62,316 bases of DNA from Dehalococcoidia bacterium (GCA_003552465.1 PULQ01000025.1:1-62316), one strand, 5' to 3'; numbered from the stretch's first letter, positions 6,635 through 19,916 are shown. The notes: a model not told the origin generated them from the letters alone. Program-made: numbers and translations.

Positions 6635-6829
6635 GGTGACTCTGCCGACAGGTGCGCCTCCATTCCTGTAGCTTCGGCTATGGCAAAATAGAGGTGCTGA
6701 CCGCCGGGATGAATGATATCAGAATGCAGGAAATCCGACACGAGACGAGATTCACAGGCGCTGAAGCGGCATATTATGATGTATAATGGGGCGGTCCAGG
6801 ATTGGAACTAAGTGAGAGGAGTTTAGTAC

Positions 6830-7240
6830 ATGGCAATCACATTTGGACCCCAGGAGTGGGCTGATGCACTGAAGCAGGCCATCGATGCCAGTCAGGCGTA
6901 CAAAGAGGCGGCTAAGAAGTGGGAGGGTGATATGTACATTATCATAGATCCCGATTCAGCCTACAGCCACAGGCATATCGTGTATCTTGATCTCTGGCAC
7001 GGAGAATGCCGCGAGGCACGTGTTGTTGAAGACGAGGGCGAGAAAGACCCGAAGTACCGGGTCTTCGGTCCGTTCACCAACATGAAGAAGATACTTGACA
7101 AAGAGGTTGATCCCGTCCGGTCTATGATGACCGGTAAGATAAGCGTCAAGGGAGATATGGTACAGATCATGCGGATGCCCAGAGCGGCGGTTGAACTGGT
7201 GAACTGCATGACCGCGTTTGAAACCGAGTTTCCGCAGTAG
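6830..7240 (+). CDS. SCP2 sterol/lipid-binding domain protein
   Basis: DPVRSMMTGKISVKGD motif, 136 aa, RBS GAGAGGAG. Confidence 0.85.
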   Translation: MAITFGPQEWADALKQAIDASQAYKEAAKKWEGDMYIIIDPDSAYSHRHIVYLDLWHGECREARVVEDEGEKDPKYRVFGPFTNMKKILDKEVDPVRSMMTGKISVKGDMVQIMRMPRAAVELVNCMTAFETEFPQ

Positions 7241-7340: not shown

Positions 7341-8510
7341 ATGTGGTACTTCGTGGCGCCTGAAGTGGTCTTCGGGCCGGATTCCTTGAGTCATCTCGCC
7401 GGGTTAGGGGCCAGATCCGCATTTATCGTTACCGACAAGAAGATAGTGGAGTTGGGGCTCACCGATCGTGTCATCGAGCAGCTTGCTCTGGCAGAGACAC
7501 GTGTGGTGGCGGTCTTCGACGATGTCGAGCCCGATCCATCGCTCCAGACGGTGCTCAAGGGCGTAGCGCTGGTTAACCAGCACTCGCCTGACCTGATCGT
7601 CGCTGTCGGTGGGGGATCGGTCATGGATGCTGCTAAGGCGATCAGGGTGCAGTATGAGCGGCCGGACATACCGCTCGAGGAGATAAACCCGTTCATAACG
7701 GACTTCGGCCTGGGCACAAAGTGCAGACTTGTCTGTATATCGACGACATCCGGTTCAGGTGCTGAGGCGACATTTGCCTTCGTAGTGACCGATACGGCGG
7801 ATCGGAGGAAGCTGAGCCTCATCAATCGACAGATTGCGCCCGACATCGCCATCGTTGACCCGGATATGGCCCGGGCCATGCCGCCTCAGATCACAGCGGA
7901 CACCGGGATGGATGTACTGACACATGCTGTGGAAGGGTACACATCCACATGGAAAAACGACTTTTCCGATGGGCTCTGCATGCGAGCAATACAGCTTGTC
8001 TTTCAGTATCTCACCCGGGCGGTGAAGGATGGCGACGACATGGAGGCTCGGGAGAAAATGCATAACGCGGCTTGCATTGCGGGCATAGGTTTCATAAACT
8101 CGTTTCCAGCTATGGCACATGCTGCCGGCCATTCTCTGGGTGCCGCGTTTCATGTGCCGCACGGCAGAGCGGTGGGATTGTTCCTTCCCTATACCATTGA
8201 GTTCGTCGGTGAAGCAGCGAGCGATCGCTGGACGGAGATCCTTCATACTGTCAAGCGCCCTGTTCCGCAGGGAGTACCGGCAGCGAGCGTGCTTGCCCGG
8301 ACGATTAGAGAACTTGCCGTTGAGATCAACCAGCCCGTTAGCATAAGGGAGACGGGAATTCCGTTAGACTCCTTTGGCGAAGCGATGGAGAAGCTAATCG
8401 ACAATGTCATGGCCGACGGCCAGTTAATAGTCAGCGCCAGGATACCTGATGCTGCAGAGACCGAGAGGTTTTTCAGGTACGCGTATGATGGAAAGAGCAT
8501 TGATTTCTAG
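7341..8510 (+). CDS. Iron-containing alcohol dehydrogenase
   Basis: GGGSVMDAAK, TTSGSGAE, DVLTHAVE, AHAAGH...HVPHG metal ligands. Confidence 0.93.
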   Translation: MWYFVAPEVVFGPDSLSHLAGLGARSAFIVTDKKIVELGLTDRVIEQLALAETRVVAVFDDVEPDPSLQTVLKGVALVNQHSPDLIVAVGGGSVMDAAKAIRVQYERPDIPLEEINPFITDFGLGTKCRLVCISTTSGSGAEATFAFVVTDTADRRKLSLINRQIAPDIAIVDPDMARAMPPQITADTGMDVLTHAVEGYTSTWKNDFSDGLCMRAIQLVFQYLTRAVKDGDDMEAREKMHNAACIAGIGFINSFPAMAHAAGHSLGAAFHVPHGRAVGLFLPYTIEFVGEAASDRWTEILHTVKRPVPQGVPAASVLARTIRELAVEINQPVSIRETGIPLDSFGEAMEKLIDNVMADGQLIVSARIPDAAETERFFRYAYDGKSIDF

Positions 8511-8652: not shown

Positions 8653-10536
8653 ATGTTTGGCTACATGGGCAGGATTCTGAGAGTTGACCTTACAGACGGC
8701 AAAATCACGGAGGAGAGTCTGAACGAGGATGATTGCAGGATGTACCTGGGTGGAAGTGGACTGGCGACCAAGTATCTGTGGAACGAAGTGCCCGGAGGCG
8801 CGGATCCGCTTGGCCCCGAGAACGAGCTTATCTTCATGACCGGACCTCTCACGGGCACCGAGTCGCCCAGCGCAGGTAGGTACTGCGTTGTGACGAAGTC
8901 GCCTCTTACAGGCTTCTGGGCTGAGGCGAACTCAGGGGGCAGCTGGGGGGTGTATCTTAAGAACTCGGGGTTCGACGGGATTATCTTCAGGGGCATATCA
9001 CCAAAGCCGGTCTTTCTGGTGATCGACGACGGAAAGGCGGAACTGAGGGACGCGGGAGATCTCTGGGGTAAGGGTGTCAGTGAGACAGACAGGCTGATAA
9101 AGGAGGAACTGGGGGAGGACTTCAACGTTGCCTGCATCGGCATTGCGGGTGAGAACCTGGTTAAGTATGCCGCGATAATCAACGATGTACATCGAGCGGC
9201 CGGCAGGTGTGGGGTGGGCACGGTTATGGGGTCCAAGCGGTTGAAGGCTGTAGCCGCCGGAGGCACGCAGGAGATCAAGATTGCCAACCAGGAGGCCTTC
9301 AGCGAGACATCCAGGACAAACTACGACCTGATCAACGAGAGCATGCTGAAGATGACTTTGGAGACCTACGGCACGGCTATGAACACGGATCTTGTTAATG
9401 TGAGAGGCGGCTTTCCTACCAGGAACTGGCAGAGCGGCGTTTTCCCCGACATAGACAAGATAAGCGGGATCACGCTCGAGAGCACATTGCTGGTGGACAG
9501 GAAGCACTGTTATGCCTGTCCCATCAGTTGTTGCAGGGTCAGCGTGGTCAGGAGCGGTCCCTATGCGTGCAAAGGAGAGGGTCCGGAGTTCGAGACTATC
9601 GGAGCCTTCGGTGCTATGTGTGCGCTTGAGAATCTGGAGGCTGTCACACTTGCGCACAACCTCTGCGATGACTACGGGTTGGATGTCATCTCCGCCGGCA
9701 GCACAATAGCATTCGCTATAGAATGCTACGAAAAGGGGATTTTGACGAAGGATGATACCGGCGGGCTGGAGTTGAAGTTCGGTGACCCGTCCCCCGTCAT
9801 CGAGCTAGTACACCTTGTAGCGAAGAGAGAGGGCATTGGCGACCTGCTTGCGGAAGGAACCAGGAGAGTCGCGGCAAGCCTTGGCAAGGGCTCAGAGGAC
9901 TTCGCCATGCATGTAAAAGGACTGGAGTTGCCGGCGTATGATCCGAGAGCAGCCAAGATCTGCGGATTGGCATTCGCCACCGCCAACCGCGGCGGTGATC
10001 ATATGACGGCCTGGGTCGAAATGCCGGCGTTCATAGATGTGCCCATTCTGTGTGTTGAGGATAGCAGGATCGAAGACGCCATGGTTGAGAATCCCGCCGA
10101 GGCCAGGGTGCTGAAGGATCTTGAGGATGTTCTTACCGTATTCGACTGCGTCGGTACATGCAAGTTTATGGGCGTGGCGCTATCTGCTGAGGATTGGGTA
10201 GACATGATATCCAACTGCGTGGGCTGGGAGTTCAGCGTAAGCGATTTCAGAAGTGTCGGAGAGAGGGTTTACAATCTTGCCAGGGCCTTCAATGTGAGAG
10301 AAGGCCTGGTCAGGGCGGACGATACACTGCCCGGGAGGTTGCTGAACGAGCCATTGCCTGAAGGGGCGGCTGCCGGACACAAGGTGGAGAAGCTGGATGA
10401 GATGCTGGATGCCTACTACGAGTTTCGTGGTTGGGATAAGACGACAGGCAGGCCGACAGCAGAAAAGCTCAGAGAGCTCGGGCTGGACTATGTGATCGAT
10501 GTGATTGAGGGGTGTAACCATGGCCACTATTGCTGA
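8653..10536 (+). CDS. aor: Aldehyde:ferredoxin oxidoreductase (W-pterin AOR family)
   Basis: MFGYMGRILRVDL, KSPLTG, AAGRCGVG.VMGSK, CYACPISC, EGPEFET, DDYGLD. Confidence 0.93.
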   Translation: MFGYMGRILRVDLTDGKITEESLNEDDCRMYLGGSGLATKYLWNEVPGGADPLGPENELIFMTGPLTGTESPSAGRYCVVTKSPLTGFWAEANSGGSWGVYLKNSGFDGIIFRGISPKPVFLVIDDGKAELRDAGDLWGKGVSETDRLIKEELGEDFNVACIGIAGENLVKYAAIINDVHRAAGRCGVGTVMGSKRLKAVAAGGTQEIKIANQEAFSETSRTNYDLINESMLKMTLETYGTAMNTDLVNVRGGFPTRNWQSGVFPDIDKISGITLESTLLVDRKHCYACPISCCRVSVVRSGPYACKGEGPEFETIGAFGAMCALENLEAVTLAHNLCDDYGLDVISAGSTIAFAIECYEKGILTKDDTGGLELKFGDPSPVIELVHLVAKREGIGDLLAEGTRRVAASLGKGSEDFAMHVKGLELPAYDPRAAKICGLAFATANRGGDHMTAWVEMPAFIDVPILCVEDSRIEDAMVENPAEARVLKDLEDVLTVFDCVGTCKFMGVALSAEDWVDMISNCVGWEFSVSDFRSVGERVYNLARAFNVREGLVRADDTLPGRLLNEPLPEGAAAGHKVEKLDEMLDAYYEFRGWDKTTGRPTAEKLRELGLDYVIDVIEGCNHGHYC

Positions 10537-12208
10537 GAAACCATGGCTGAAGCAGTACAAGCTCGGACCCTATAAGCTTCCGCAGACGAAGGAGCCGTAT
10601 CCGGTTACGACGGTTCACAGTCTGCTTGACGCCACTGCGGCTGAGTATCCGGACAGGGTGGCCTGTTACTACCTGGGCAGAGAGATCCTGTACAGCGAGA
10701 TGAAGCAGTTCAGCGACAGCCTGGCTGCTGCGCTCGCAAACCTGGGAGTGACCAAGGGCGACAAGGTGGCTACCGTTCTGCCGAACTGCCCCCAGTTCAT
10801 GATAAGCGACTTCGGGATCATGAAGGCCGGGGCGGCGCATGTACCCTGCAGCGTGATGCACAGGGGGGCCGACCTGATCTATGAGATCGGAGAATCGGGG
10901 GCCGAGACGGTCATCTGTACCGATATGTCTCTGGACCTGGTGAACTCGGTAAGGGCGGAGACCCGCATCAAGAATGTCATCGTCAGCTCGTTGACGGACT
11001 ATTCGTCCGACGAGACTGATCCGAAGAAGCACCCGGATGCCCATGGATTCCGGGAGTTGATTGACAGCCACGGTCCCGAGCCTCCCGAGGTGGATATCGA
11101 TCCCATGACAGACCTGGCTGTTCTTCCCTTCACAGGAGGCGCTACGGGATTGCCCAAGGGAGTTATGCTGACCCACTATAACCGGGTGGTTGCTATAGTG
11201 CAGACGGCATGGTCTTATGAGCCTTTGAAGGTGGGCATCAGAGGGAAGGCTTCGGCCATGATACCCATCCCTCTGTTTCACGCCTACGGTCATCTTATGA
11301 TGCAGTTCGGGGTGTACTGGGGGCTGAAGGGCTATCTGCTGCCCGACCCGAGGGATACCGACACGCTGGTTCAGATGCTCATGAAGCATCGCCCCTTCTT
11401 CTGTGCCTGCGTGCCCACTCAGTATTCGCGACTGGTGGCGGCAGGACTGGGCAGACTGACCACGATGTTCATGTCGACGACGGCAGCGCTGGCGCCCGAG
11501 GTCGCGCAGAAGTTCAGGAAGGAGACGGGCGTGCCCATTACCGAGGCCTACGGCCTGACTGAGACCGGTGGTGCTACACATATCAACCTTTCGTCTTTCT
11601 CCAAGATCACCGGCTTTATGCCCTTCGAGAAGTTCGGGTCGATTGGGATTCCGCTGCCCGACACGGATGTGAGGATAGTCGATCTGGACACGGGGGAAGA
11701 CGTCGCTCCTGGCTGTGAGGGCGAACTATGGGTGCGAGGCCCACAGGTGATGATGGGATACTGGCCCGAGGCAGGCAAGGGCCTTGTCGACGGCTGGGTG
11801 CCCACGGGCGACGTGGTGAAGATGGAGGATGACGGGGATTTCTACATCACAGACCGTGTTAAGGACATGGCCAATATATCGGGACTGAAGGTCTACACCA
11901 GGCTGGTTGATGATGCCCTGTACGAGCACCCGGCGGTCGGCGATGCCGTTGCCATCGGGGTTCCCGACCCCGAGCGGGCAGGTAGTGAGAGGATCAAGGC
12001 CTTCATCCGGCTGAAAGAGGAATACGAAGGGCGGGTCACCGCTGAAGAGTTGATAGGGCATTGTCGGGAGAGGCTCCCGGCCTACGCGGTTCCCAAGTTC
12101 ATCGAGTTCAGAGAAGAGCTGCCTGTTACGGTCACGCTAAAGCTGTTCAAGAGGCAACTGAGAGAAGAGGAAGTGGCCAGGATGAAGGCCTCAGGTGAAT
12201 TGGGTTAG
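10520..12208 (+). CDS. Long-chain fatty acid-CoA ligase-like AMP-binding enzyme
   Basis: FTGGATGLPKG, YGLTE, GELWVRGPQVM.GYW, TGD, DRVKD. Overlaps the aor stop. Confidence 0.9.
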   Translation: MATIAEKPWLKQYKLGPYKLPQTKEPYPVTTVHSLLDATAAEYPDRVACYYLGREILYSEMKQFSDSLAAALANLGVTKGDKVATVLPNCPQFMISDFGIMKAGAAHVPCSVMHRGADLIYEIGESGAETVICTDMSLDLVNSVRAETRIKNVIVSSLTDYSSDETDPKKHPDAHGFRELIDSHGPEPPEVDIDPMTDLAVLPFTGGATGLPKGVMLTHYNRVVAIVQTAWSYEPLKVGIRGKASAMIPIPLFHAYGHLMMQFGVYWGLKGYLLPDPRDTDTLVQMLMKHRPFFCACVPTQYSRLVAAGLGRLTTMFMSTTAALAPEVAQKFRKETGVPITEAYGLTETGGATHINLSSFSKITGFMPFEKFGSIGIPLPDTDVRIVDLDTGEDVAPGCEGELWVRGPQVMMGYWPEAGKGLVDGWVPTGDVVKMEDDGDFYITDRVKDMANISGLKVYTRLVDDALYEHPAVGDAVAIGVPDPERAGSERIKAFIRLKEEYEGRVTAEELIGHCRERLPAYAVPKFIEFREELPVTVTLKLFKRQLREEEVARMKASGELG

Positions 12209-12292: not shown

Positions 12293-13420
12293 ATGCCGAG
12301 CTACGAAGATCTAGAATCCAGGATCATTGACTCCGGAGAGTGCACCGTCTGCGGTGCCTGCGTTGTCGCCTGTCCGACGGCCCATGTGAAGCTCATCGAT
12401 GGCAGGCCAAGGCGGCCCAAACGCGCTATGGATTGTGTGGGTTGCAGCATCTGCTATGAAGCTTGTTACATGCTCAGGCACAGCCTGATCAAGGATATTG
12501 AGGGTGCCGTTATCGGTCGAGGAAAGAAAGAGAGCGTCGGGCTTTACATGCGCGCAGTGCTGGCGAGGACAACCGATGATGTGGTTGCCGACAGATGCCA
12601 GGATGGTGGGGTTGTGACTACGCTACTCCTGTATGCGCTGGAGAGCGGCATTATGGACGGCGTGCTGGTGGTCGGCAGAGACGGCTGGACTCCCACCGCC
12701 TATGTAGCAAGGACCAGGGAGGAGATAATGGAGGCGGCAGGTACCAAGTACGGCGTCGTGCCCGTGTTGAGTAAGCTGAGGGAGGCCGTTGTCGACCATG
12801 GATTGACCAAGATCTGGGTCGTGGGATCGCCATGTCATATACAGTCGATCAGATATCTCAAGCACAAGGGTTTGCCGCTGGCAACGTCGGTTCAGGTTAT
12901 GGTTGGCCTCTTCTGCAGGGAGAACTACGAGTATAACTGCATGGAGGAGCTGGTCAGGGCTCAGGGTGTCGAGATGAGCCAGGTCGATAGGCTGGAGGTA
13001 TACGATGAGTTCCGTGTATACGCAGATGGGAACAGGATGGACCTGCCTGTTACCGATATCAAGGATTGCGTGCCCCGGCATTGCCTTGTCTGCCGTGACT
13101 TCGCTGCCGAGCTTGCCGATATCGCCGCAGGTAGCGGGGGCTCCTACGGAGGCCGGTCAACCGTCATAGTCAGGAGTGTGAAGGGTGAGGAGGTCTTCGC
13201 CGGGATGGAGCAGTCGGGGCTGATCAGTACAGAGTCCGACGGATACGCGCCTGAGATCAGCGAGATTGCCGAAAGGAAGAGCGAAAAGGCGAAGCAAACC
13301 GGTGATATATTTCGGCTCGCCGAGAAGGGCCTTAATGAGAAGGAGATCTCCGATAGGCTCGGCATAACCGAGAGAAGGGTATCTCACCGACTGCGCGGTG
13401 CACGTCGGAACACCTCCTGA
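12293..13420 (+). CDS. FrhB/FdhB-like (F420 hydrogenase/dehydrogenase beta) protein with 2x[4Fe-4S] and C-terminal HTH-like segment
   Basis: CTVCGACVVAC, CVGCSICYEAC, QDGGVVT, GTKY, GSPCHI, GLFC, C..C.DF. Tail GLNEKEISDRLGITERRVSHRL. Confidence 0.85.
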   Translation: MPSYEDLESRIIDSGECTVCGACVVACPTAHVKLIDGRPRRPKRAMDCVGCSICYEACYMLRHSLIKDIEGAVIGRGKKESVGLYMRAVLARTTDDVVADRCQDGGVVTTLLLYALESGIMDGVLVVGRDGWTPTAYVARTREEIMEAAGTKYGVVPVLSKLREAVVDHGLTKIWVVGSPCHIQSIRYLKHKGLPLATSVQVMVGLFCRENYEYNCMEELVRAQGVEMSQVDRLEVYDEFRVYADGNRMDLPVTDIKDCVPRHCLVCRDFAAELADIAAGSGGSYGGRSTVIVRSVKGEEVFAGMEQSGLISTESDGYAPEISEIAERKSEKAKQTGDIFRLAEKGLNEKEISDRLGITERRVSHRLRGARRNTS

Positions 13421-13499: not shown

Positions 13500-13877
13500 G
13501 TGGAGAAGACTACCTATGAGATCGATGGATTTGCCAGGGGGGCGCCGTACTCACATGTTGTCGAGGCGGGTGGCTTCCTGTTCGTCTCCGGAGTTCTCCC
13601 CATCGATGTCGGGAAGAACCTGAAGATAACCGACGACGTAAAGGCGGCTACCGAACTGGTGCTCAGCAACGTGAAGCTGGCGCTTGAGTCGACTGGCAGC
13701 GATCTCGACAGGGTCGTCAAGGTTACCATCTTTCTGCGGGACATGGCCGATTTCAGCGCCATGAACGAGGTCTACAGGGCCTTCTTCCCCGTCAACCCGC
13801 CCGCTCGTTCTTGCATTGCCGTAAGGGAGGTTCCGGGTAACTACCCTGTGGAGATCGAAGCTATTGCCATCAAGTGA
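13500..13877 (+). CDS. RidA/YjgF family imine deaminase
   Basis: PYSH, FLFVSG.LP, VVKVTIFL.DM.DF..MNEVY, PARS, VEIEAIA. Confidence 0.92.
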   Translation: MEKTTYEIDGFARGAPYSHVVEAGGFLFVSGVLPIDVGKNLKITDDVKAATELVLSNVKLALESTGSDLDRVVKVTIFLRDMADFSAMNEVYRAFFPVNPPARSCIAVREVPGNYPVEIEAIAIK

Positions 13878-13956
13878 CGGATGAAGTGGCCGTCTAGCCC
13901 GGTATGCCGTTAGGAGGGCCACCCGCTGGGTGCCACCAGGTACATAGGAGGTTGCC

Positions 13957-16374
13957 ATGAGTGAAAGCACAGTGTTGCCGGAGATGACGATCGAGTCGTT
14001 CCCCAGGTTGTCGAAGCTCTATGACGACCTGCTATCGGCAAGGAAGGAGGTCTGCATCCAGAGGGCCCGCCATATCACGGACTTCATGAAGGGATCGGAT
14101 GTCTGGTTCATGCCTCCGGTGTTCAGGAGAGCCCGAGCAGTGGCTCACATTCTGAAGAACCTCGATGTGGGGATACATCCCGATGAGCTGTTGGTTGGCA
14201 GTATCACCAGCAAGCGGGTGGGAGCCGTCATCTATCCAGAGTTTGTCGGTGTCCTGATCTGGCCGGAACTAGCGAATCTGCGAGAACGAGCGGTGGATGC
14301 GTTCGACATCAGCGATGATGAGATCAAGGAGTTGGAGCAGGACATCTTTCCGTTCTGGATGGATAAGGTTCTGGCCTGGCATGCTCAGGAGTTCCTGTCG
14401 CCACCACAGCCCATGTCTCTCTTGTTCAAAGGGGGCTTCTTCGTGCTGACCGAAGCGGCAGGGATCTCACATACCGCTCCCGACTTTGAGAAACTGTTAC
14501 GTGTGGGGCTGGATGGCATCAAAGAGGAGGCAGGTGAAAAGGTCCGCGAGATGGATGCCGATCCCGTGGGTGATCCTGAGCGGTTCAGAGAACGCGCCTT
14601 CTACCGTGCTGTCCAGGTATCCTGTGATGCCGTCGTAGAGTTCGCCGGCAGGCACCACGCTGAGGCACTCAGACTCGCTGAACTGGAGACGGACAGCGAG
14701 AAGAAGGATGAACTGCTGGAGATCGCCCGTATCTGTGCCAAGGTGCCGGCCGGGCCGGCCACATGCTTCCGCGAGGCTCTGCAGAGCATATGGTTCCTCG
14801 AGATCGCTCTGCATCAGGAGAACTACGAGCAGGCTTTGTGCCCTGGTCGGGCAGACCAGTATCTCTATCCTTACTACCGGGATGATCTTGAGAAGGGACT
14901 CATCACCGCGGAGCAGGCCGTTGAGTTGCTCGGGTGCCTGTCTGTAAAGATGTCCGAGTTCGTCCCGCTGTTTGCCGAGAATCTCGCCACGCTGTTCAGT
15001 GGCTTCCCGGCCAATCCGTCGGTCACGATCGGCGGCGTGACTGCTGATGGTGCCGATGCTACGAATGAGCTTAGCTATCTGTTTCTGAAGACTAGAGAAC
15101 TGGTCAAGACCAGGCACCCCAATCTCCATGCTAGAGTACACGGGCAGTCGCCTCCTCAATACCTTGAGAGAATCTGCGAGGTAATCAAGGATGGCGGAGG
15201 AATGCCGGGCCTCGTCAACGACGATGTGGTTGTGCCTGCGCTTATGGCCAAGGGGATAACGGAGTCGGATGCTCGTGACTATGTGATCATCGGCTGCGTG
15301 GAGATATCGGTTCCCAGGAAGACCTTCGGCTCAACCGATGCCGCCTTGATGAGTCTGCCGGTCTGTCTCGAGATGGCTCTGAACAACGGCTGTAGTCCGG
15401 TCATGCAGGAGGAGGTCGGAGTGAAGACGGGCGATCCGAGGGAGTTCAGGGGAATGGATGACGTTCTCGGTGCTCTTCGAAATCAGATATCATACGTGGT
15501 GGAGCAGATGGTCATCGGCCTGAACGTCCTGGGCATTGCTCATAGGGAGCTATACCCCAGTCCCCTGCTGTCCTCTCTGATAGAGGGGTGTATTGACACC
15601 GGGAAGGACGTCACGGCCGGCGGTGCTGTGTACAACTTCACTGGCGTCCAGGGTGTGGGTGTGGCCGACGTTGCCGACTCACTGGCAGCCATTGACCGGT
15701 TGGTGTTCGCGGACAAGAAGGTAACGATGGATGAACTGCTGAAGGCTCTGGAGGACAACTTCGAGGGCCACGAGCGGCTTCATCAGTTGATAGTGAACAG
15801 GGTTCCCAAGTACGGCAATGACGATGAGCTTCCCGATAGGTATGCCAGGGAGGTTGCCGAACTCTTCTGTGGGGAAGTGGCGAAGCATCGTAATCCCAGA
15901 GGCGGAGCCTACTTGCCGGGGTTCCTGAGTATGACCAATCACAAAGGCTTCGGCAAGTTCGTCGGCGCATTGCCCAGCGGTAGAAGGGCCCTTGAGAGCC
16001 TCTCCAACGGCATATCGCCGTGCGACGGCGTGGATAGGAAAGGTCCGACCGCCTATCTCAAGTCGGTGGCAAAGGTCGACTACTCCCAGGCCACCAATGG
16101 AGTAGCGGTGAATCTGAAGTTCAACCCAACTTATCTCAGGGGTGCCGTCGGTACGGGGAACCTCGGTTCGCTGATCAGGGCCTACTTCGGGCTGGGCGGT
16201 ATGCACCTGCAGGTGAATGTGGTCGACAGGGAGACCCTTCTTGATGCCCAGAGGAACCCGGCGAAGCATGCCGGGCTTATGGTCAGGGTGGCCGGCTATT
16301 CGGCTTACTTCGCAGATCTGAGTCGAGAGGTACAGGACGAGATCATAGCCAGAACCGAGCATTGCTCTCAGTAG
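13957..16374 (+). CDS. Glycyl radical enzyme, PFL2/PflD-like, substrate unknown
   Basis: Gly loop RVAGYSAYF, Cys loop GCVEI, PDELLVGS, GRADQYLYP, PKYGND. 805 aa. Confidence 0.92.
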   Translation: MSESTVLPEMTIESFPRLSKLYDDLLSARKEVCIQRARHITDFMKGSDVWFMPPVFRRARAVAHILKNLDVGIHPDELLVGSITSKRVGAVIYPEFVGVLIWPELANLRERAVDAFDISDDEIKELEQDIFPFWMDKVLAWHAQEFLSPPQPMSLLFKGGFFVLTEAAGISHTAPDFEKLLRVGLDGIKEEAGEKVREMDADPVGDPERFRERAFYRAVQVSCDAVVEFAGRHHAEALRLAELETDSEKKDELLEIARICAKVPAGPATCFREALQSIWFLEIALHQENYEQALCPGRADQYLYPYYRDDLEKGLITAEQAVELLGCLSVKMSEFVPLFAENLATLFSGFPANPSVTIGGVTADGADATNELSYLFLKTRELVKTRHPNLHARVHGQSPPQYLERICEVIKDGGGMPGLVNDDVVVPALMAKGITESDARDYVIIGCVEISVPRKTFGSTDAALMSLPVCLEMALNNGCSPVMQEEVGVKTGDPREFRGMDDVLGALRNQISYVVEQMVIGLNVLGIAHRELYPSPLLSSLIEGCIDTGKDVTAGGAVYNFTGVQGVGVADVADSLAAIDRLVFADKKVTMDELLKALEDNFEGHERLHQLIVNRVPKYGNDDELPDRYAREVAELFCGEVAKHRNPRGGAYLPGFLSMTNHKGFGKFVGALPSGRRALESLSNGISPCDGVDRKGPTAYLKSVAKVDYSQATNGVAVNLKFNPTYLRGAVGTGNLGSLIRAYFGLGGMHLQVNVVDRETLLDAQRNPAKHAGLMVRVAGYSAYFADLSREVQDEIIARTEHCSQ

Positions 16375-16384
16375 GACTGTAACC

Positions 16385-17287
16385 ATGTCGGAGGGCGCCA
16401 CAGTTTTCGACCTGCAGCGCTTCTCTATACACGACGGTCCCGGCATCAGAACCGTTGTCTTCTTCAAGGGCTGTCCGCTTCAGTGCCTGTGGTGTCAGAA
16501 TTCGGAGGGCCTGGACCCTGAGCCTGAGATCAGCTTCTCGAAGGAGAGGTGCCTGGGTTGTCGGGAATGCCAACCTTCATGCCCATTGCAGGCGATCGTC
16601 TTCAATGGAGATGGGCGCATCAACCGCCAGCTTTGTGATCGCTGCGGCAGGGGCACCGAAGCCTGCCATTCGGGTGCCCTTGAACTCGTCGGCAGGCGCT
16701 ACTCTCCGCAGGAGTTGCTGGAAGAGGCCATGGATGATCTGCCCTTCTTCGTAGCATCGGGTGGCGGCATCACCCTCTCGGGAGGCGAGCCTACCTGCCA
16801 GGCTGAGTTCCTGTCCGAGTTTCTTCCACTGTGTAAGGAGCAGGGGCTCAATGTCGCTATGGAGACATGTGGCTACGTGGCCTACCAGAAACTGGAGCCG
16901 CTGCTTCCCTTCCTGGACCTGGTTCTGTACGATGTCAAGGCCGTTGACCCGGCGCTGCACCGGCGTCTCACCGGGAAGGATAACGCTGTGATACTGAAGA
17001 ACCTGGTGCGGCTTCTTGAAAAGCAAAGGTGCAGGATCAGGGTCAGGGTGCCTCTGGTTCCGGGCATGACATCGACGGACAGGAACCTTAGGGACATCAT
17101 TGGCTTTCTTAAGAAACATCGCGTCGACGAAGTGTCACTTGTCCCCTACCACAGGATGGGGGAGAGTAAGCTGGAAAAGATCGACAGCCCGCTGAAACCG
17201 CTGAATCTGGCCGGGGCCGATGATCGAGATATGGAAGCTGCAGCAGGCCTGTTTCGTGTTAGTGGCATTGAAGTCCTGGACCCGTGA
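16385..17287 (+). CDS. Glycyl-radical activating enzyme (radical SAM) with ferredoxin insert
   Basis: HDGPGIRTVVFFKGCPLQCLWCQN, CLGCRECQPSC, GGITLSGGEP, directly after the GRE. Confidence 0.95.
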   Translation: MSEGATVFDLQRFSIHDGPGIRTVVFFKGCPLQCLWCQNSEGLDPEPEISFSKERCLGCRECQPSCPLQAIVFNGDGRINRQLCDRCGRGTEACHSGALELVGRRYSPQELLEEAMDDLPFFVASGGGITLSGGEPTCQAEFLSEFLPLCKEQGLNVAMETCGYVAYQKLEPLLPFLDLVLYDVKAVDPALHRRLTGKDNAVILKNLVRLLEKQRCRIRVRVPLVPGMTSTDRNLRDIIGFLKKHRVDEVSLVPYHRMGESKLEKIDSPLKPLNLAGADDRDMEAAAGLFRVSGIEVLDP

Positions 17288-17321: not shown

Positions 17322-17350
17322 TTGACCTATCGGTACCGATACACTAAAAT
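17322..17350 (+). promoter_or_regulatory. Sigma70 promoter with perfect 14-bp palindrome in the spacer
   Basis: TTGACC-17-TAAAAT. Spacer contains TATCGGTACCGATA (17328-17341). Confidence 0.6.
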
Positions 17351-17362
17351 GGCATCTCAGTT

Positions 17363-18244
17363 GTGAACCCGGATGCTATTCAGCAAGACATAGAGCCTGC
17401 TCTTCGTGATCTTCCCGATCGACTCTGTTCTGGTGCCGCGCACCGCAATGATGGAAGGGTGGACCTGGATTGGGACGATGACCATGTGCTTCCCCCGAAG
17501 GTCTACCCGGACATAGCTCACCTTTTCCGAAGGATGACCGATGTCACAGTCGGGGCTGTGGGTGTGGTGGAGCAGGAACTTGTGCTTGATATCGGGTGTG
17601 GCAGGGCGGTTGATGCCATAGAACTGGCCAGGAAGGGAGGGCTGTGCTCAGGACTTGAGCCGTCGGGGAGGATGATATCGCACGCCCGGCTGCATACCTC
17701 CCGGAACGGTGCTTCGGTCAACCTCGCCCGTGGAGTAAGTGCACACCTGCCGTTCAAGACAGGTTCGTTCGACAAGATACTCTGCAAGGGAGCTCTGGAT
17801 CACTTCTGCCATTTGGACGAGGCGATCGCCGAAATGGCCCGGGTGCTCAAGCCAGGGGGGCGGGCGGTGATCGCCACTGCCAACTTCGAGAGCCTCGGGT
17901 TCAGGACCGGAAGACGGTTGTTCGCACTGATGCGTTTTCTGCGCAGAGAGAAGGCGGATGACGGTCATTTCTGGCAGATACCCGATGACCATACCATCAA
18001 GCTGGACTACGGCACCCTCAGGCGTCTGGTAAGCCCTCATTTCAGGGTAGAGCGTGCCGAGGGTATATCGTTGCTGGTCGGACTGCCTGGCTGGAGTTCG
18101 CTGCTTGATAGATTGCCGCAGAGGCTTTCTGCTCTTTCGCTGACGGCCCTGGACGGGTTGGCCAGGCATTTGCCTTCGCTCAGCAATGTCATCGTCATCA
18201 GGTGCGTGCCCAGGGCGAATCCTACCTCTTCGTCAACAGAATAG
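17363..18244 (+). CDS. Class I SAM-dependent methyltransferase
   Basis: VLDIGCG, LPFKTGSFD, RVLKPGG. Confidence 0.85.
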   Translation: MNPDAIQQDIEPALRDLPDRLCSGAAHRNDGRVDLDWDDDHVLPPKVYPDIAHLFRRMTDVTVGAVGVVEQELVLDIGCGRAVDAIELARKGGLCSGLEPSGRMISHARLHTSRNGASVNLARGVSAHLPFKTGSFDKILCKGALDHFCHLDEAIAEMARVLKPGGRAVIATANFESLGFRTGRRLFALMRFLRREKADDGHFWQIPDDHTIKLDYGTLRRLVSPHFRVERAEGISLLVGLPGWSSLLDRLPQRLSALSLTALDGLARHLPSLSNVIVIRCVPRANPTSSSTE

Positions 18245-18863
18245 AGGAGATGCCGTAGTCCCCGACTATCTCGTGCCGATCCAGTATGTCATCTTTGTGC
18301 TCATCCATCAGTTCGTCTACCGCCTCGGTCACCTCCGGCCAGTCGTCGAACCTGTAATCGTGAAAGCCAATGATACCTCCCGATACCAGGTGTGGCCAGA
18401 TGAGGCGGAAGTCGCTCTTCACACAGTCCTTCTGGTGACAACCATCGACGAAGGCGAAGACGAATCTAGTTTCCTCGTCCAGGACCACCCTTCTGGAGTC
18501 CTCTATGATCGTGACGATGTTGGGAAGACGCCTCGTCGCCTCTCTGTATACCTCCCACATGGAGCGCCCTTTCAGAAATGCACGGTAGACCTCGGCTGCC
18601 GGCACTGTGCTCTTGCTCACTGTGGTGTCCATGTCGGGGTCGAAGGTGTCGATGACATACACTCTCTTATCGTGCCTGGCTGCCAGTCTTGCCAGCTTCA
18701 CCGTACCACCGCCCATGTAGGCTCCGACCTCTATGAGGTCGCCTTCCATCTGCATCAGCCCCTGTCTCGTTATGAAGGCGATGAGGTTATCGTAGCCGAC
18801 GAACTCGGGTGGCGGGCGCTTCAGCCCCGGTATTCTGTGCCAGATATCGGCGATGCGGACCAA
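18222..18863 (-). CDS. Class I methyltransferase (Methyltransf_24-like), positional equivalent of MMP OrfD
   Basis: IEVGAYMGG, VIDTF, FAFVDGCH, LVSGGIIGFHDY. Confidence 0.75.
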   Translation of the reverse strand: MVRIADIWHRIPGLKRPPPEFVGYDNLIAFITRQGLMQMEGDLIEVGAYMGGGTVKLARLAARHDKRVYVIDTFDPDMDTTVSKSTVPAAEVYRAFLKGRSMWEVYREATRRLPNIVTIIEDSRRVVLDEETRFVFAFVDGCHQKDCVKSDFRLIWPHLVSGGIIGFHDYRFDDWPEVTEAVDELMDEHKDDILDRHEIVGDYGISSILLTKR

Positions 18864-18872
18864 GTCAACCTC

Positions 18873-19916
18873 TCACGGAAACCTGGTGAAGACCCTGCTT
18901 CGGGTAGCTTGAGGGTTCGCGATCTCAAGCTGGCTGCTGAGCGCGATGACCATCGCCGCTGAGACCCAAGTCGGTTTCTCCTCCGGGGGCCAGATCTCCT
19001 CCTCGGGCATCTTCATGCCCGTCCAGAAGCGCCCATCGTCATCTCTGAGTTCCAGGGCCCAGTCCAGGAGGGTCCTTGCCCTGTGGCTCTCGCCGATACG
19101 GTTCAGTGCCAGGACGAGTTCGCAGGTCTCGGCCACAGTTATCCCCCATGGTTCCTCCACCACACACTTGCACCCCCGGCCGTCGACAACGAAATCCGAC
19201 CACTTCTCGTAGATGCGCTCTCTGGCCTCCCCTCCCCTCACTATGCCGGTGAGAACGGGATAGTACCAGGACATCGCATAGTCATATTGACTGTCGACCG
19301 AGTTATGGAACAGCTCCGGTTGTTCGCTGACCGCATGTGCCAGTCTGCGGCTGGCAGCATGCCAGCGGGGCTTGTCGGTCTGCAGGAGTCTGGCTACCTT
19401 GATCCCACATCGCAGACTCTGGTAGATGGAGCTGGACCCTGCTATTAGCGCCAGAGGATAGACTGCCCCGTGCGGGTCACGAGCCCAGTAGATATGGCCG
19501 GGCGGCTGCTGCAGTTGCAGGGCGAAGTCGAGCCCTCTCTCCACCGTCGGCCACATCTCGGCAACGAAGCCCCTGTTCCGGGTTATCATGTAGTGATACC
19601 ACAGCCCGACTGCGGGATAGGAGCTGTAGTTGGTGTCTTTGGTCAGATCGCAGGGTTCATCTCCCATATAGCTGGAGTACCAGCTCCCGTCGTCGTTCTG
19701 AGCGCCGCGCAACCAGCGGTATGCCCTCTCGGCTTCTTCGTGTCTTCCCGACGCATCCAGAGCTATCGCACACTCGACGTGATCCCACGGGTCGGCAATG
19801 CCCGTGTCATACCACGGTATAATGCCCGACGGTAGCTGGGTACGGCCTATGTGGTCGGCCTGCTGCTCTATCAGGCAATCGATCTCCGACCGTGTTAACT
19901 CTTGTCTCAGATCCAC
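18873..19916 (-). CDS. Alpha/alpha-toroid glycoside hydrolase-like protein (MmpH-like)
   Basis: IPW...DPWDHVECA.AL, Q..DGSW, DTN, MWP.V, SIYQSLRC, MSWYYP, AETCEL, FWTG, match recalled mycobacterial MmpH-type motifs. Confidence 0.75.
   Translation of the reverse strand: MDLRQELTRSEIDCLIEQQADHIGRTQLPSGIIPWYDTGIADPWDHVECAIALDASGRHEEAERAYRWLRGAQNDDGSWYSSYMGDEPCDLTKDTNYSSYPAVGLWYHYMITRNRGFVAEMWPTVERGLDFALQLQQPPGHIYWARDPHGAVYPLALIAGSSSIYQSLRCGIKVARLLQTDKPRWHAASRRLAHAVSEQPELFHNSVDSQYDYAMSWYYPVLTGIVRGGEARERIYEKWSDFVVDGRGCKCVVEEPWGITVAETCELVLALNRIGESHRARTLLDWALELRDDDGRFWTGMKMPEEEIWPPEEKPTWVSAAMVIALSSQLEIANPQATRSRVFTRFP

Follow-up and report, generated by a model that had tools for sequence, protein, structure and literature searches.

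A glycyl radical enzyme of the PFL2-like superclade and its gene neighbourhood in a Dehalococcoidia bacterium

Glycyl radical enzymes (GREs) and RidA proteins are already known classes. The protein of solved structure that is closest in sequence to the GRE considered here is PFL2 of Archaeoglobus fulgidus (AF1449, also named PflD; PDB 2F3O), the crystal structure of which dates from 2006. A 2026 review lists PFL2 as a GRE of unknown function, in agreement with an earlier sequence-only reading of the DNA analyzed here, which had taken the PFL2 substrate as unresolved; in the same review, E. coli PflD is an anhydromannitol-6-phosphate C-O lyase. Alkane activation by fumarate addition was proposed for A. 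fulgidus PflD/PFL2 (Khelifi 2014, as cited elsewhere), and PFL2 relatives in metagenomes are annotated as alkane-activating on thin evidence. The present work concerns a GRE gene located at 13957–16374 (plus strand) in a 62,316-nt stretch from an uncultured anaerobic Dehalococcoidia bacterium (GCA_003552465.1, PULQ01000025.1:1–62316), which as a whole is referred to as the window.

The Cys-X-Glu motif of GRE eliminases is defined in the 2026 review, according to which Glu435 of glycerol dehydratase deprotonates the C1 hydroxyl and His164 donates a proton to the departing hydroxyl. According to the paper on HypD, the essential Asp278 of this enzyme, which contacts the amine and the hydroxyl, sits on the beta1 strand. 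New in the present case is an uncharacterised GRE clade in which the residues of the substrate pocket are exchanged and which is regularly accompanied by an SCP2-type protein; one sublineage also carries RidA within the GRE cassette.

Assignment, phylogeny and active site of the GRE

The gene encodes a protein of 805 aa (P0001; key residues H172, E291, C447, E449, D461 and G780), which is an intact, uncharacterised, oxygen-sensitive GRE and, judging from its residues, most likely one of the 1,2-eliminase (dehydratase or C-X lyase) type. All five motifs named in the sequence-only reading were found in the translation, namely FVLTEAAGISH (aa 162–172, nt 14440–14472), ALHQENYEQA (aa 284–293, nt 14806–14835), GCVEI (aa 446–450, nt 15292–15306), DAAL (aa 461–464, nt 15337–15348) and MTNHKGFG (aa 659–666, nt 15931–15954). 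In addition, the glycyl motif RVAGYS (aa 777–782) corresponds to the RVxG[FWY] pattern of the superfamily, and, as is expected of its members, C447 is present in the Cys loop and the gene of a cognate radical S-adenosylmethionine (SAM) activase follows after a gap of 10 nt. The genome (1.8 Mb, 87% complete) holds exactly one GRE. The Pfam search attributed the protein to PFL-like (659 bits) and Gly_radical (PF01228, 114 bits), and the NCBIfam model TIGR01774 (PFL2-3 subfamily) was matched with 778 bits at a cut-off of 678. The NCBIfam equivalog cut-offs were not reached for HpsG (628 of 1000 bits), HypD (NF043068; 592 of 1100), CutC (578 of 1050) and PflD (567 of 1109), nor for the HpfG, IAD, HPAD, PFL and decarboxylase models, where scores were lower than 567. 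The view that the enzyme differs from CutC and HypD was thus borne out, and the same is true for HpsG/HpfG, PflD and the decarboxylases.

PFL2 was the best match among PDB sequences (625 bits), the margin being small: glycerol dehydratase scored 600 bits, propanediol dehydratase 590 bits, the 9RCO propanediol dehydratase 577 bits, and CutC (9F3W) 595 bits when summed over three stretches, with 494 bits coming from the full-length catalytic match. The BLASTP identity to PFL2 (41.7%) is hardly above the 39–41% found for the diol dehydratases (glycerol dehydratase 38.9%, propanediol dehydratase 5I2A 40.7%, 9RCO 39.7%). An AlphaFold2 model (pLDDT 92.3) was compared using Foldseek, and the top matches were propanediol dehydratase, glycerol dehydratase and PFL2, with template modelling (TM) scores of 0.94–0.98 and a root-mean-square deviation (rmsd) of 1.4–1.5 Å. 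Since the model superposes equally well on all three, the fold cannot discriminate PFL2 from the diol dehydratases; thus, of the two comparisons that the sequence-only reading had suggested, the alignment points narrowly to PFL2, whereas the superposition does not separate it. Motifs, by contrast, set the two groups apart: 2F3O has identical ALHQENYEQA, GCVEI and (S/T)DAAL sequences, and all three are conserved in both the Dehalococcoidia and the PFL2 clade, while glycerol and propanediol dehydratases have I(E/Q)S(N/S)GHS and WHD(S/A)AF at those sites and CutC also lacks the PFL2-type motifs. The motif match to PFL2 given in the sequence-only reading is therefore exact for these three, but the PFL2 counterpart of the first motif, FVLTEIAGISH, is one residue off and that of the last, MTTNVGFG, matches in part.

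Phylogenetic trees were built with FastTree (180 sequences) and IQ-TREE (LG+C20 PMSF, 62 sequences), with 2F3O, 1R8W, 5I2A, 9RCO, part of CutC and E. coli PflD, YbiW and PflB as references. In the IQ-TREE analysis, the window GRE and PFL2 were placed in one superclade (99/98), with all characterised references outside it, among them glycerol and propanediol dehydratase, CutC, E. coli PflD and YbiW. The Dehalococcoidia clade (100/100) consists of sequences with 63–89% identity to the window GRE, and the PFL2 clade (100/100) contains 2F3O together with sequences from Archaeoglobaceae, Baldrarchaeum and, in small number, sediments. The Dehalococcoidia clade is united with two other uncharacterised clades, c27 and c19, by a branch with 100/98 support, and a single clade of Dehalococcoidia and PFL2 sequences was rejected in the approximately unbiased (AU) test (p = 0.0036). 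The window GRE is thus a member of the PFL2-like superclade in a Dehalococcoidia-specific clade that is neither inside the PFL2 clade nor its exclusive sister. The resemblance to PFL2/PflD noticed earlier holds for the superclade and the active-site signature, but not for membership in the PFL2 clade itself. The closest relative from outside Dehalococcoidia with the HQENYEQ motif, P0060 (51% identity), was found in a Guaymas Basin sediment contig (locus L077), which also encodes a 409-aa Memo-family protein; a canonical activase is not adjacent to P0060.

The numbering of glycerol dehydratase was transferred through the alignment and checked on the 1R8W sequence; the functions assigned to residues follow the 2026 review and the paper on HypD. 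H164, C433, E435, D447 and G763 of glycerol dehydratase correspond to H172, C447, E449, D461 and G780, which are invariant in 41 of the 41 Dehalococcoidia-clade sequences as well as in the PFL2, SCP2-fused and c27 clades. The Cys-X-Glu motif is present as C447-V448-E449, invariant across the clades compared, and the acid–base pair His164/Asp447 is represented by H172 and D461. The substrate contacts of glycerol and propanediol dehydratase (S282, Y339/F344, Y640 and W445-H446) were not retained: the window GRE has A293, N353, L657 and S459-T460, which in terms of glycerol dehydratase means S282A, Y339N, Y640L and W445S/H446T, and N-G-H (279–281) is changed to Y-E-Q. The Y640 equivalent is Tyr in PFL2 and Leu in the window GRE. 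An extra invariant acidic residue, E291, is located on the beta1 strand, and positions 661–663 of beta8 read N-H-K in enzymes of the operon type, whereas most of the remaining Dehalococcoidia members show T-H-(Q/E). The retention of all catalytic residues of eliminases argues against fumarate addition, and the pattern fits a C-X lyase or eliminase that acts on a new substrate, not a fumarate-adding enzyme; the alkane label is not supported here.

Gene cluster and SCP2-like partner

The GRE gene lies within a run of nine genes on the plus strand. A sigma-70-like promoter match (TTCACA-18-TATGAT, 6751–6780, plus strand; 10 of 12 consensus positions, a consensus match only) stands ahead of the first gene, and consensus matching revealed no convincing terminator within the run. 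The first gene encodes an SCP2-like lipid-carrier protein (P0124, 136 aa, 6830–7240; PF02036, 37 bits at a cut-off of 21.3). It is followed by genes for an iron-containing alcohol dehydrogenase (Fe-ADH, 7341–8510; PF00465 and PF25137), a tungsten-type aldehyde:ferredoxin oxidoreductase (AOR, 8653–10536; AFOR_N 274 bits, AFOR_C 466 bits), an AMP-forming acyl-CoA ligase (10520–12208; AMP-binding 279 bits) and an FrhB/FdhB-like flavo-iron-sulfur protein (12293–13420; FrhB_FdhB_N, FrhB_FdhB_C and Fer4, with an N-terminal 2x[4Fe-4S] domain). The best NCBIfam matches of the Fe-ADH, namely the AdhE ADH domain and lactaldehyde reductase, are all under cut-off, and every best NCBIfam match of the acyl-CoA ligase is a long-chain-fatty-acid-CoA ligase, likewise under cut-off. 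The ligase open reading frame (ORF) opens at TTG 10505, so that it overlaps the AOR gene at its end. ATG 10520 is the likely start, in line with the length of 562 aa of the orthologues in loci L094 and L095. From its domains, the FrhB-like protein is a putative electron-transfer partner and a plausible electron acceptor for the AOR. Its C-terminal tail resembles a helix-turn-helix (weak Pfam match to HTH_23, E 4.9e-4), and the protein could sense or regulate besides carrying electrons.

RidA and the GRE come next, and then the GRE-activating radical-SAM enzyme (16385–17287), which contains Radical_SAM and Fer4 domains and a ferredoxin-like insert and was recognised by TIGR02494 (311 bits, cut-off 174). 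Natural fusions of a superclade GRE and a radical-SAM activase in one polypeptide were found in metagenomes (P0114, P0115 and P0122, 1094–1105 aa). The last gene encodes a class I SAM methyltransferase (17363–18244) with its own promoter-like site (17322–17350, again a consensus match), and its membership in the operon is uncertain; it follows the activase in L001, L012, L081, L094 and L095 but not in L002/L089. Methylmannose-polysaccharide-like genes border it downstream on the opposite strand. A 258-aa ORF at 18186–18962 (plus strand) was rejected as probably spurious, as a Methyltransf_24 gene of 204–213 aa is called on the minus strand in syntenic loci (18222–18863 in the window).

The order SCP2-ADH-AOR-ligase-FrhB-RidA-GRE-activase is kept in L001, L012, L081, L094 and L095, and the same operon without RidA was found in L002/L089; SCP2 is the first gene in L001, L002, L012, L081, L094 and L095 as well. 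In addition, three JGI metagenome contigs (L096–L098) contain the module without RidA, GRE and activase. Here a ThiF gene on the minus strand is followed by SCP2-SCP2-FeADH-SCO4226-like-AOR-acyl-CoA ligase-FrhB-like and then an HpaB-like gene, and the module therefore looks like a free-standing unit oxidising hydrophobic alcohols or aldehydes. No microcompartment or propionate/3-hydroxypropionaldehyde (3-HPA) genes were seen among the Pfam-scanned operon genes and their immediate neighbours, and neither methylmalonyl-CoA mutase nor carboxyltransferase was seen among the operon genes and neighbours examined. No annotated operon gene resembles an X-succinate-synthase-like small subunit, for which no dedicated search was made.

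An SCP2-type protein is a more general partner of these GREs than RidA and occurs in three independent arrangements, namely in the operon, as an upstream gene and as a fusion. The fusion is found in a GRE clade with 47% identity to the window GRE, which carries an N-terminal SCP2 domain (PF02036, 31.5 bits) that also gives a weak Alkyl_sulf_C match. The upstream gene encodes a 144–146-aa protein and, in the non-operon Dehalococcoidia subclades, stands directly before the GRE in L003, L004, L006, L007, L009, L051, L072/73 and L083/84. A metagenome scan with this 145-aa family yielded 16 loci, and in all 13 with room downstream the GRE was located 20–57 nt downstream on the same strand. Comparison with the operon protein P0124 by hhalign (89.7%, E 1.9e-6, 112 columns) indicates that the family is probably a distant homologue; BLASTP against the L081 orthologue of the operon SCP2 gave 5e-8 to 8e-9, and Pfam SCP2 was the top match, although sub-threshold (E 0.01–0.07). 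In the literature that could be searched, no pairing of SCP2 with a GRE came to light. Short SCP2-like gene remnants upstream of the GRE in L071 (9836–9982, 49 aa) and L010 (7862–7942, 27 aa) suggest decay of the partner gene in some lineages. In an Archaeoglobus sp. metagenome-assembled genome, a 160-aa protein of the chorismate-lyase/UTRA fold (Rv2949c-like; L020:7331–7813) is encoded directly upstream of the PFL2 orthologue; this small-ligand-binding protein is a different small partner from the bacterial SCP2.

RidA and its linkage to the GRE

The RidA gene (13500–13877, plus strand; Rid family, RidA subfamily) starts with GTG, is preceded by an AGGAGG ribosome-binding site of its own and terminates 79 nt ahead of the GRE start. 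The sequence-only reading had placed RidA immediately upstream of the GRE, and the gene found there is indeed canonical: it scores 113.4 bits against TIGR00004 (cut-off 106.25) and 115 bits against PF01042, it aligns over the full length with solved RidA/YjgF proteins, and its PARS matches the conserved PAR arginine. In RidA proteins, this Arg binds the substrate carboxylate. The gene is the sole Rid-family gene of the 87%-complete genome, and its product is predicted to be a canonical 2-iminoacid deaminase retained in one sublineage.

RidA was found directly upstream of the GRE in six operon-type loci (the window, L001, L012, L081/L082, L094 and L095; GRE identity 73–100%), and a seventh is likely, as RidA P0127 and GRE P0005, each 86% identical, each come from a 4109-bp contig of one source. 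Consequently, the linkage is not confined to the window; a confinement to it had been named in the sequence-only reading as an observation that would refute the idea put forward there. However, all positive loci form one closely related sublineage, and the linkage is thus one evolutionary event. RidA is absent from the operon-type locus L002 (= L089). Other Dehalococcoidia subclades (63–72% identity; L003–L011, L013, L071–L073 and L083/L084) are without RidA and without ADH, AOR and ligase, and no RidA was found at 13 Archaeoglobaceae/PFL2-clade loci or at about 40 loci of other GRE clades. Since the L096–L098 module lacks RidA together with GRE and activase, RidA follows the GRE cassette and not the ADH-AOR-ligase module.

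A Rid-family gene is present in 2 of the 13 genomes with clade GREs, in both cases as the operon copy, compared with 12 of 14 control genomes. Within the order, a Rid gene was found in 87 of 151 genomes and a clade GRE in only four; the RidAs of the same-genus genomes G033 and G051 are 33–34% identical and unlinked. No homologue of IlvA-type threonine dehydratase was found in the own 87%-complete genome despite the canonical RidA. The rarity of Rid genes in genomes with clade GREs and the missing IlvA homologue weaken the explanation of RidA as a chance-placed housekeeping gene, although RidAs with 69–70% identity sit in housekeeping settings, one of them directly before a pyridoxal-phosphate-dependent threonine dehydratase. 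In the RidA tree, the operon copies fall within one 21-member group with weak support (87) that includes a non-operon copy, and the tree is too weak to decide on a dedicated role. Two further candidates were rejected. RidA-FrhB synteny as an inherited block (L093) was discarded, as the FrhB-like proteins are 27% identical and hence paralogues. A regulatory RNA between RidA and the GRE was also discarded: the spacer is unconserved save for the ribosome-binding site, and its folding is no better than that of shuffled sequences (z = -0.55). Overall, a functional coupling of RidA to the GRE is regarded as rather doubtful, and the imine or enamine product suggested in the sequence-only reading is possible but not required.

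Proposed function and comparison with known systems

From the gene content, conserved residues, phylogeny and linkage statistics described above, we infer a reaction type, a hydrophobic substrate and a pathway order. The somewhat favoured assumption is that the GRE performs a radical elimination on a hydrophobic hydroxylated substrate and feeds the Fe-ADH/AOR/acyl-CoA-ligase module, to which the RidA-GRE-activase cassette was added. In this scheme, the adjacent activase would install the radical on G780, and C447 would abstract a hydrogen at the carbinol carbon of the substrate. E449 would deprotonate the hydroxyl of that carbon, and H172/D461 would protonate the group that departs from the adjacent carbon (most likely OH or OR), with release of a carbonyl compound. 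The conservation of the SCP2 partner and the presence of the ADH-AOR-ligase module suggest a hydrophobic tail, and the substrate would probably be presented by the SCP2-like carrier. An aldehyde product would be converted by the AOR to the acid and by the ligase to the acyl-CoA, the AOR electrons passing to the FrhB-like Fe-S flavoprotein, whereas an alcohol freed from an ether would pass the Fe-ADH first to give the aldehyde. The module is taken as co-transcribed with the GRE, and the RidA-GRE-activase cassette would have joined a pre-existing SCP2-ADH-AOR-ligase-FrhB module.

A number of observations weigh against this assumption. The literature gives no measured substrate, product or activity for any superclade member, PFL2 included. 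The acyl-CoA ligase scores under the NCBIfam cut-off for the long-chain models that it matches best, and the operon SCP2 gene belongs primarily to the ADH-AOR-ligase module, which is found also without a GRE. The first-shell pocket residues are polar (E291, Q292, N353, H662 and K663), and therefore the hydrophobic part of the substrate is restricted to its tail. The distance to HypD, IslA, HpsG and HplG was estimated from phmmer and Foldseek scores and NCBIfam cut-offs rather than from the tree. Finally, some neighbourhoods are of another kind: L072 contains 2-oxoacid:ferredoxin oxidoreductase, 2-hydroxyacid dehydrogenase and a thiamine-pyrophosphate enzyme, and L077 contains IOR, a PaaK-like ligase, an aminotransferase and AOR. 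Together with L042, where acyl-CoA dehydrogenase, an esterase-like protein and an aldo-keto reductase were found, they indicate that different subclades may use different substrates.

The imine or enamine idea of the sequence-only reading can be extended to an amino-substituted substrate, from which the GRE would release an enamine or imine that RidA would convert to a keto compound and ammonia before the ADH, AOR and ligase steps. Candidate substrates would be beta-hydroxy-alpha-amino acids, 1,2-amino alcohols and head groups of an O-substituted serine type, with the formation of pyrroline-5-carboxylate (P5C) by HypD as a model. That RidA directly precedes the GRE in all six loci, has a ribosome-binding site of its own and is not cut off by a terminator is consistent with this, as are its gain and loss with the GRE cassette, the lack of any Rid-family gene in the 11 other genomes with clade GREs, and the single RidA copy in a genome where no IlvA-type enzyme was detected. 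In the active site, invariant E291 lies on the strand that carries the amine-binding Asp278 in HypD, a likeness at strand level, and K663 of the operon-type enzymes is Q or E in other subclades. However, the RidA-positive loci represent a single gain in one sublineage, L002/L089 retains the operon without RidA, and RidA is missing from more than 20 other clade loci in addition to the 13 PFL2-clade and about 40 other GRE loci, and RidAs of 69–70% identity sit in housekeeping settings. Moreover, a RidA of canonical type, with its carboxylate-binding Arg, would depend on a 2-iminoacid, yet neither a decarboxylase nor an oxidoreductase for 2-oxoacids is encoded in the operon, and the literature search revealed no GRE paired with RidA. 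The amino-substituted substrate is therefore considered unlikely, though worth keeping in mind.

An ordinary dehydratase of glycerol, 1,2-propanediol or a similar small diol, with ADH and AOR dismutating the aldehyde and with SCP2 and RidA as bystanders, would account for the catalytic tetrad shared with glycerol and propanediol dehydratase, for their first ranks in Foldseek at 39–41% identity and for the ADH and aldehyde-oxidising enzyme, which are the classical downstream set. Nevertheless, this explanation is improbable: the specificity residues are replaced, no equivalog model scores over its cut-off, the tree separates the window GRE from these enzymes (99/98), no microcompartment or propionate/3-HPA genes accompany the Pfam-scanned operon genes, and SCP2-like genes adjoin or fuse to the GREs too regularly (13 of 13) for bystanders. 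Activation of alkanes by fumarate addition, as in an alkyl- or arylsuccinate synthase, could draw on the proposal of Khelifi 2014, as cited elsewhere, and on the context of a hydrophobic carrier and acyl-CoA ligase. Against it are the invariant Cys-X-Glu glutamate and His/Asp pair, the scores of MasD (317 bits) and BssA (274 bits) compared with 625 bits for PFL2, their Foldseek ranks of 47–49 at 27–28% identity, and the fact that no small subunits, methylmalonyl-CoA mutase or carboxyltransferase were seen among the operon genes and neighbours examined; such an activity is very hard to reconcile with these data.

Elimination on a hydrophobic hydroxylated substrate thus remains the assumption followed here, and it can be taken further, although with low probability. 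The cassette may turn the hydrophobic alcohol/aldehyde module into an anoxic breakdown pathway for a lipid whose head group bears an amino or hydroxy substituent. Candidates are ether lipids (alkylglycerols or others), vicinal diols with a long chain, and amino alcohols of the serine or sphingoid type. The GRE would then cleave the head group by radical elimination, RidA would clear the enamine or imine, and SCP2 would pass the alkyl product to ADH, AOR and ligase. If so, the enzyme would be the first example of a GRE with demonstrated activity on a lipid, and also of one coupled to RidA, and it would suggest a function for the PFL2 superclade. Irrespective of this extension, a PFL2-like enzyme is found here in a clear pathway context (lipid carrier, ADH, AOR and acyl-CoA ligase), which gives a short testable list of substrate classes. 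Dehalococcoidia are abundant in anoxic sediments, and if the substrates of SCP2-partnered GREs are indeed hydrophobic diols, ethers or amino alcohols, these enzymes would contribute an oxygen-independent route of lipid turnover there.

A comparison with described systems indicated that the window GRE and PFL2 (2F3O) are similar in structure (TM 0.94/0.98, rmsd 1.4 Å), share the superclade and both have an adjacent activase. They differ in the beta8 strand (FLSMTNHK in the window GRE and CYPMTTNV in PFL2), and the PFL2-clade loci examined are without RidA, SCP2 and the ADH and ligase module; in one of these loci, an AOR is encoded at a distance of about 6 kb. B12-independent glycerol dehydratase (1R8W) and propanediol dehydratases (5I2A, 9RCO) have the same fold (TM 0.94–0.97) and the equivalents of Cys-X-Glu, His164 and Asp447, and downstream aldehyde-handling enzymes are present in both cases. 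However, the window operon has an SCP2-like partner, and a tungsten AOR and an acyl-CoA ligase take the place of the CoA-acylating aldehyde dehydrogenase in a microcompartment. HypD (6VXC, trans-4-hydroxy-L-proline dehydratase) is likewise an eliminase with the Cys-X-Glu motif and His and offers a GRE precedent for enamine or imine release, but it is distant from the window GRE (514 bits, 34% identity). The HypD product is reduced by P5C reductase and is not known to be handled by RidA.

(1-Methylalkyl)succinate and benzylsuccinate synthases (9O8U, 4PKC), which were proposed to be functional analogues of A. fulgidus PflD, also belong to the GREs and have hydrophobic substrates, yet they are only 27–28% identical to the window GRE. 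The SCP2 partnership also has counterparts outside the GREs: UbiJ and UbiT of ubiquinone synthesis are SCP2-type carriers paired with enzymes, and alkylsulfatase has a C-terminal SCP2-type domain. As in alkylsulfatase, a small SCP2-fold unit would be paired in the window with a soluble enzyme of a probably hydrophobic substrate.

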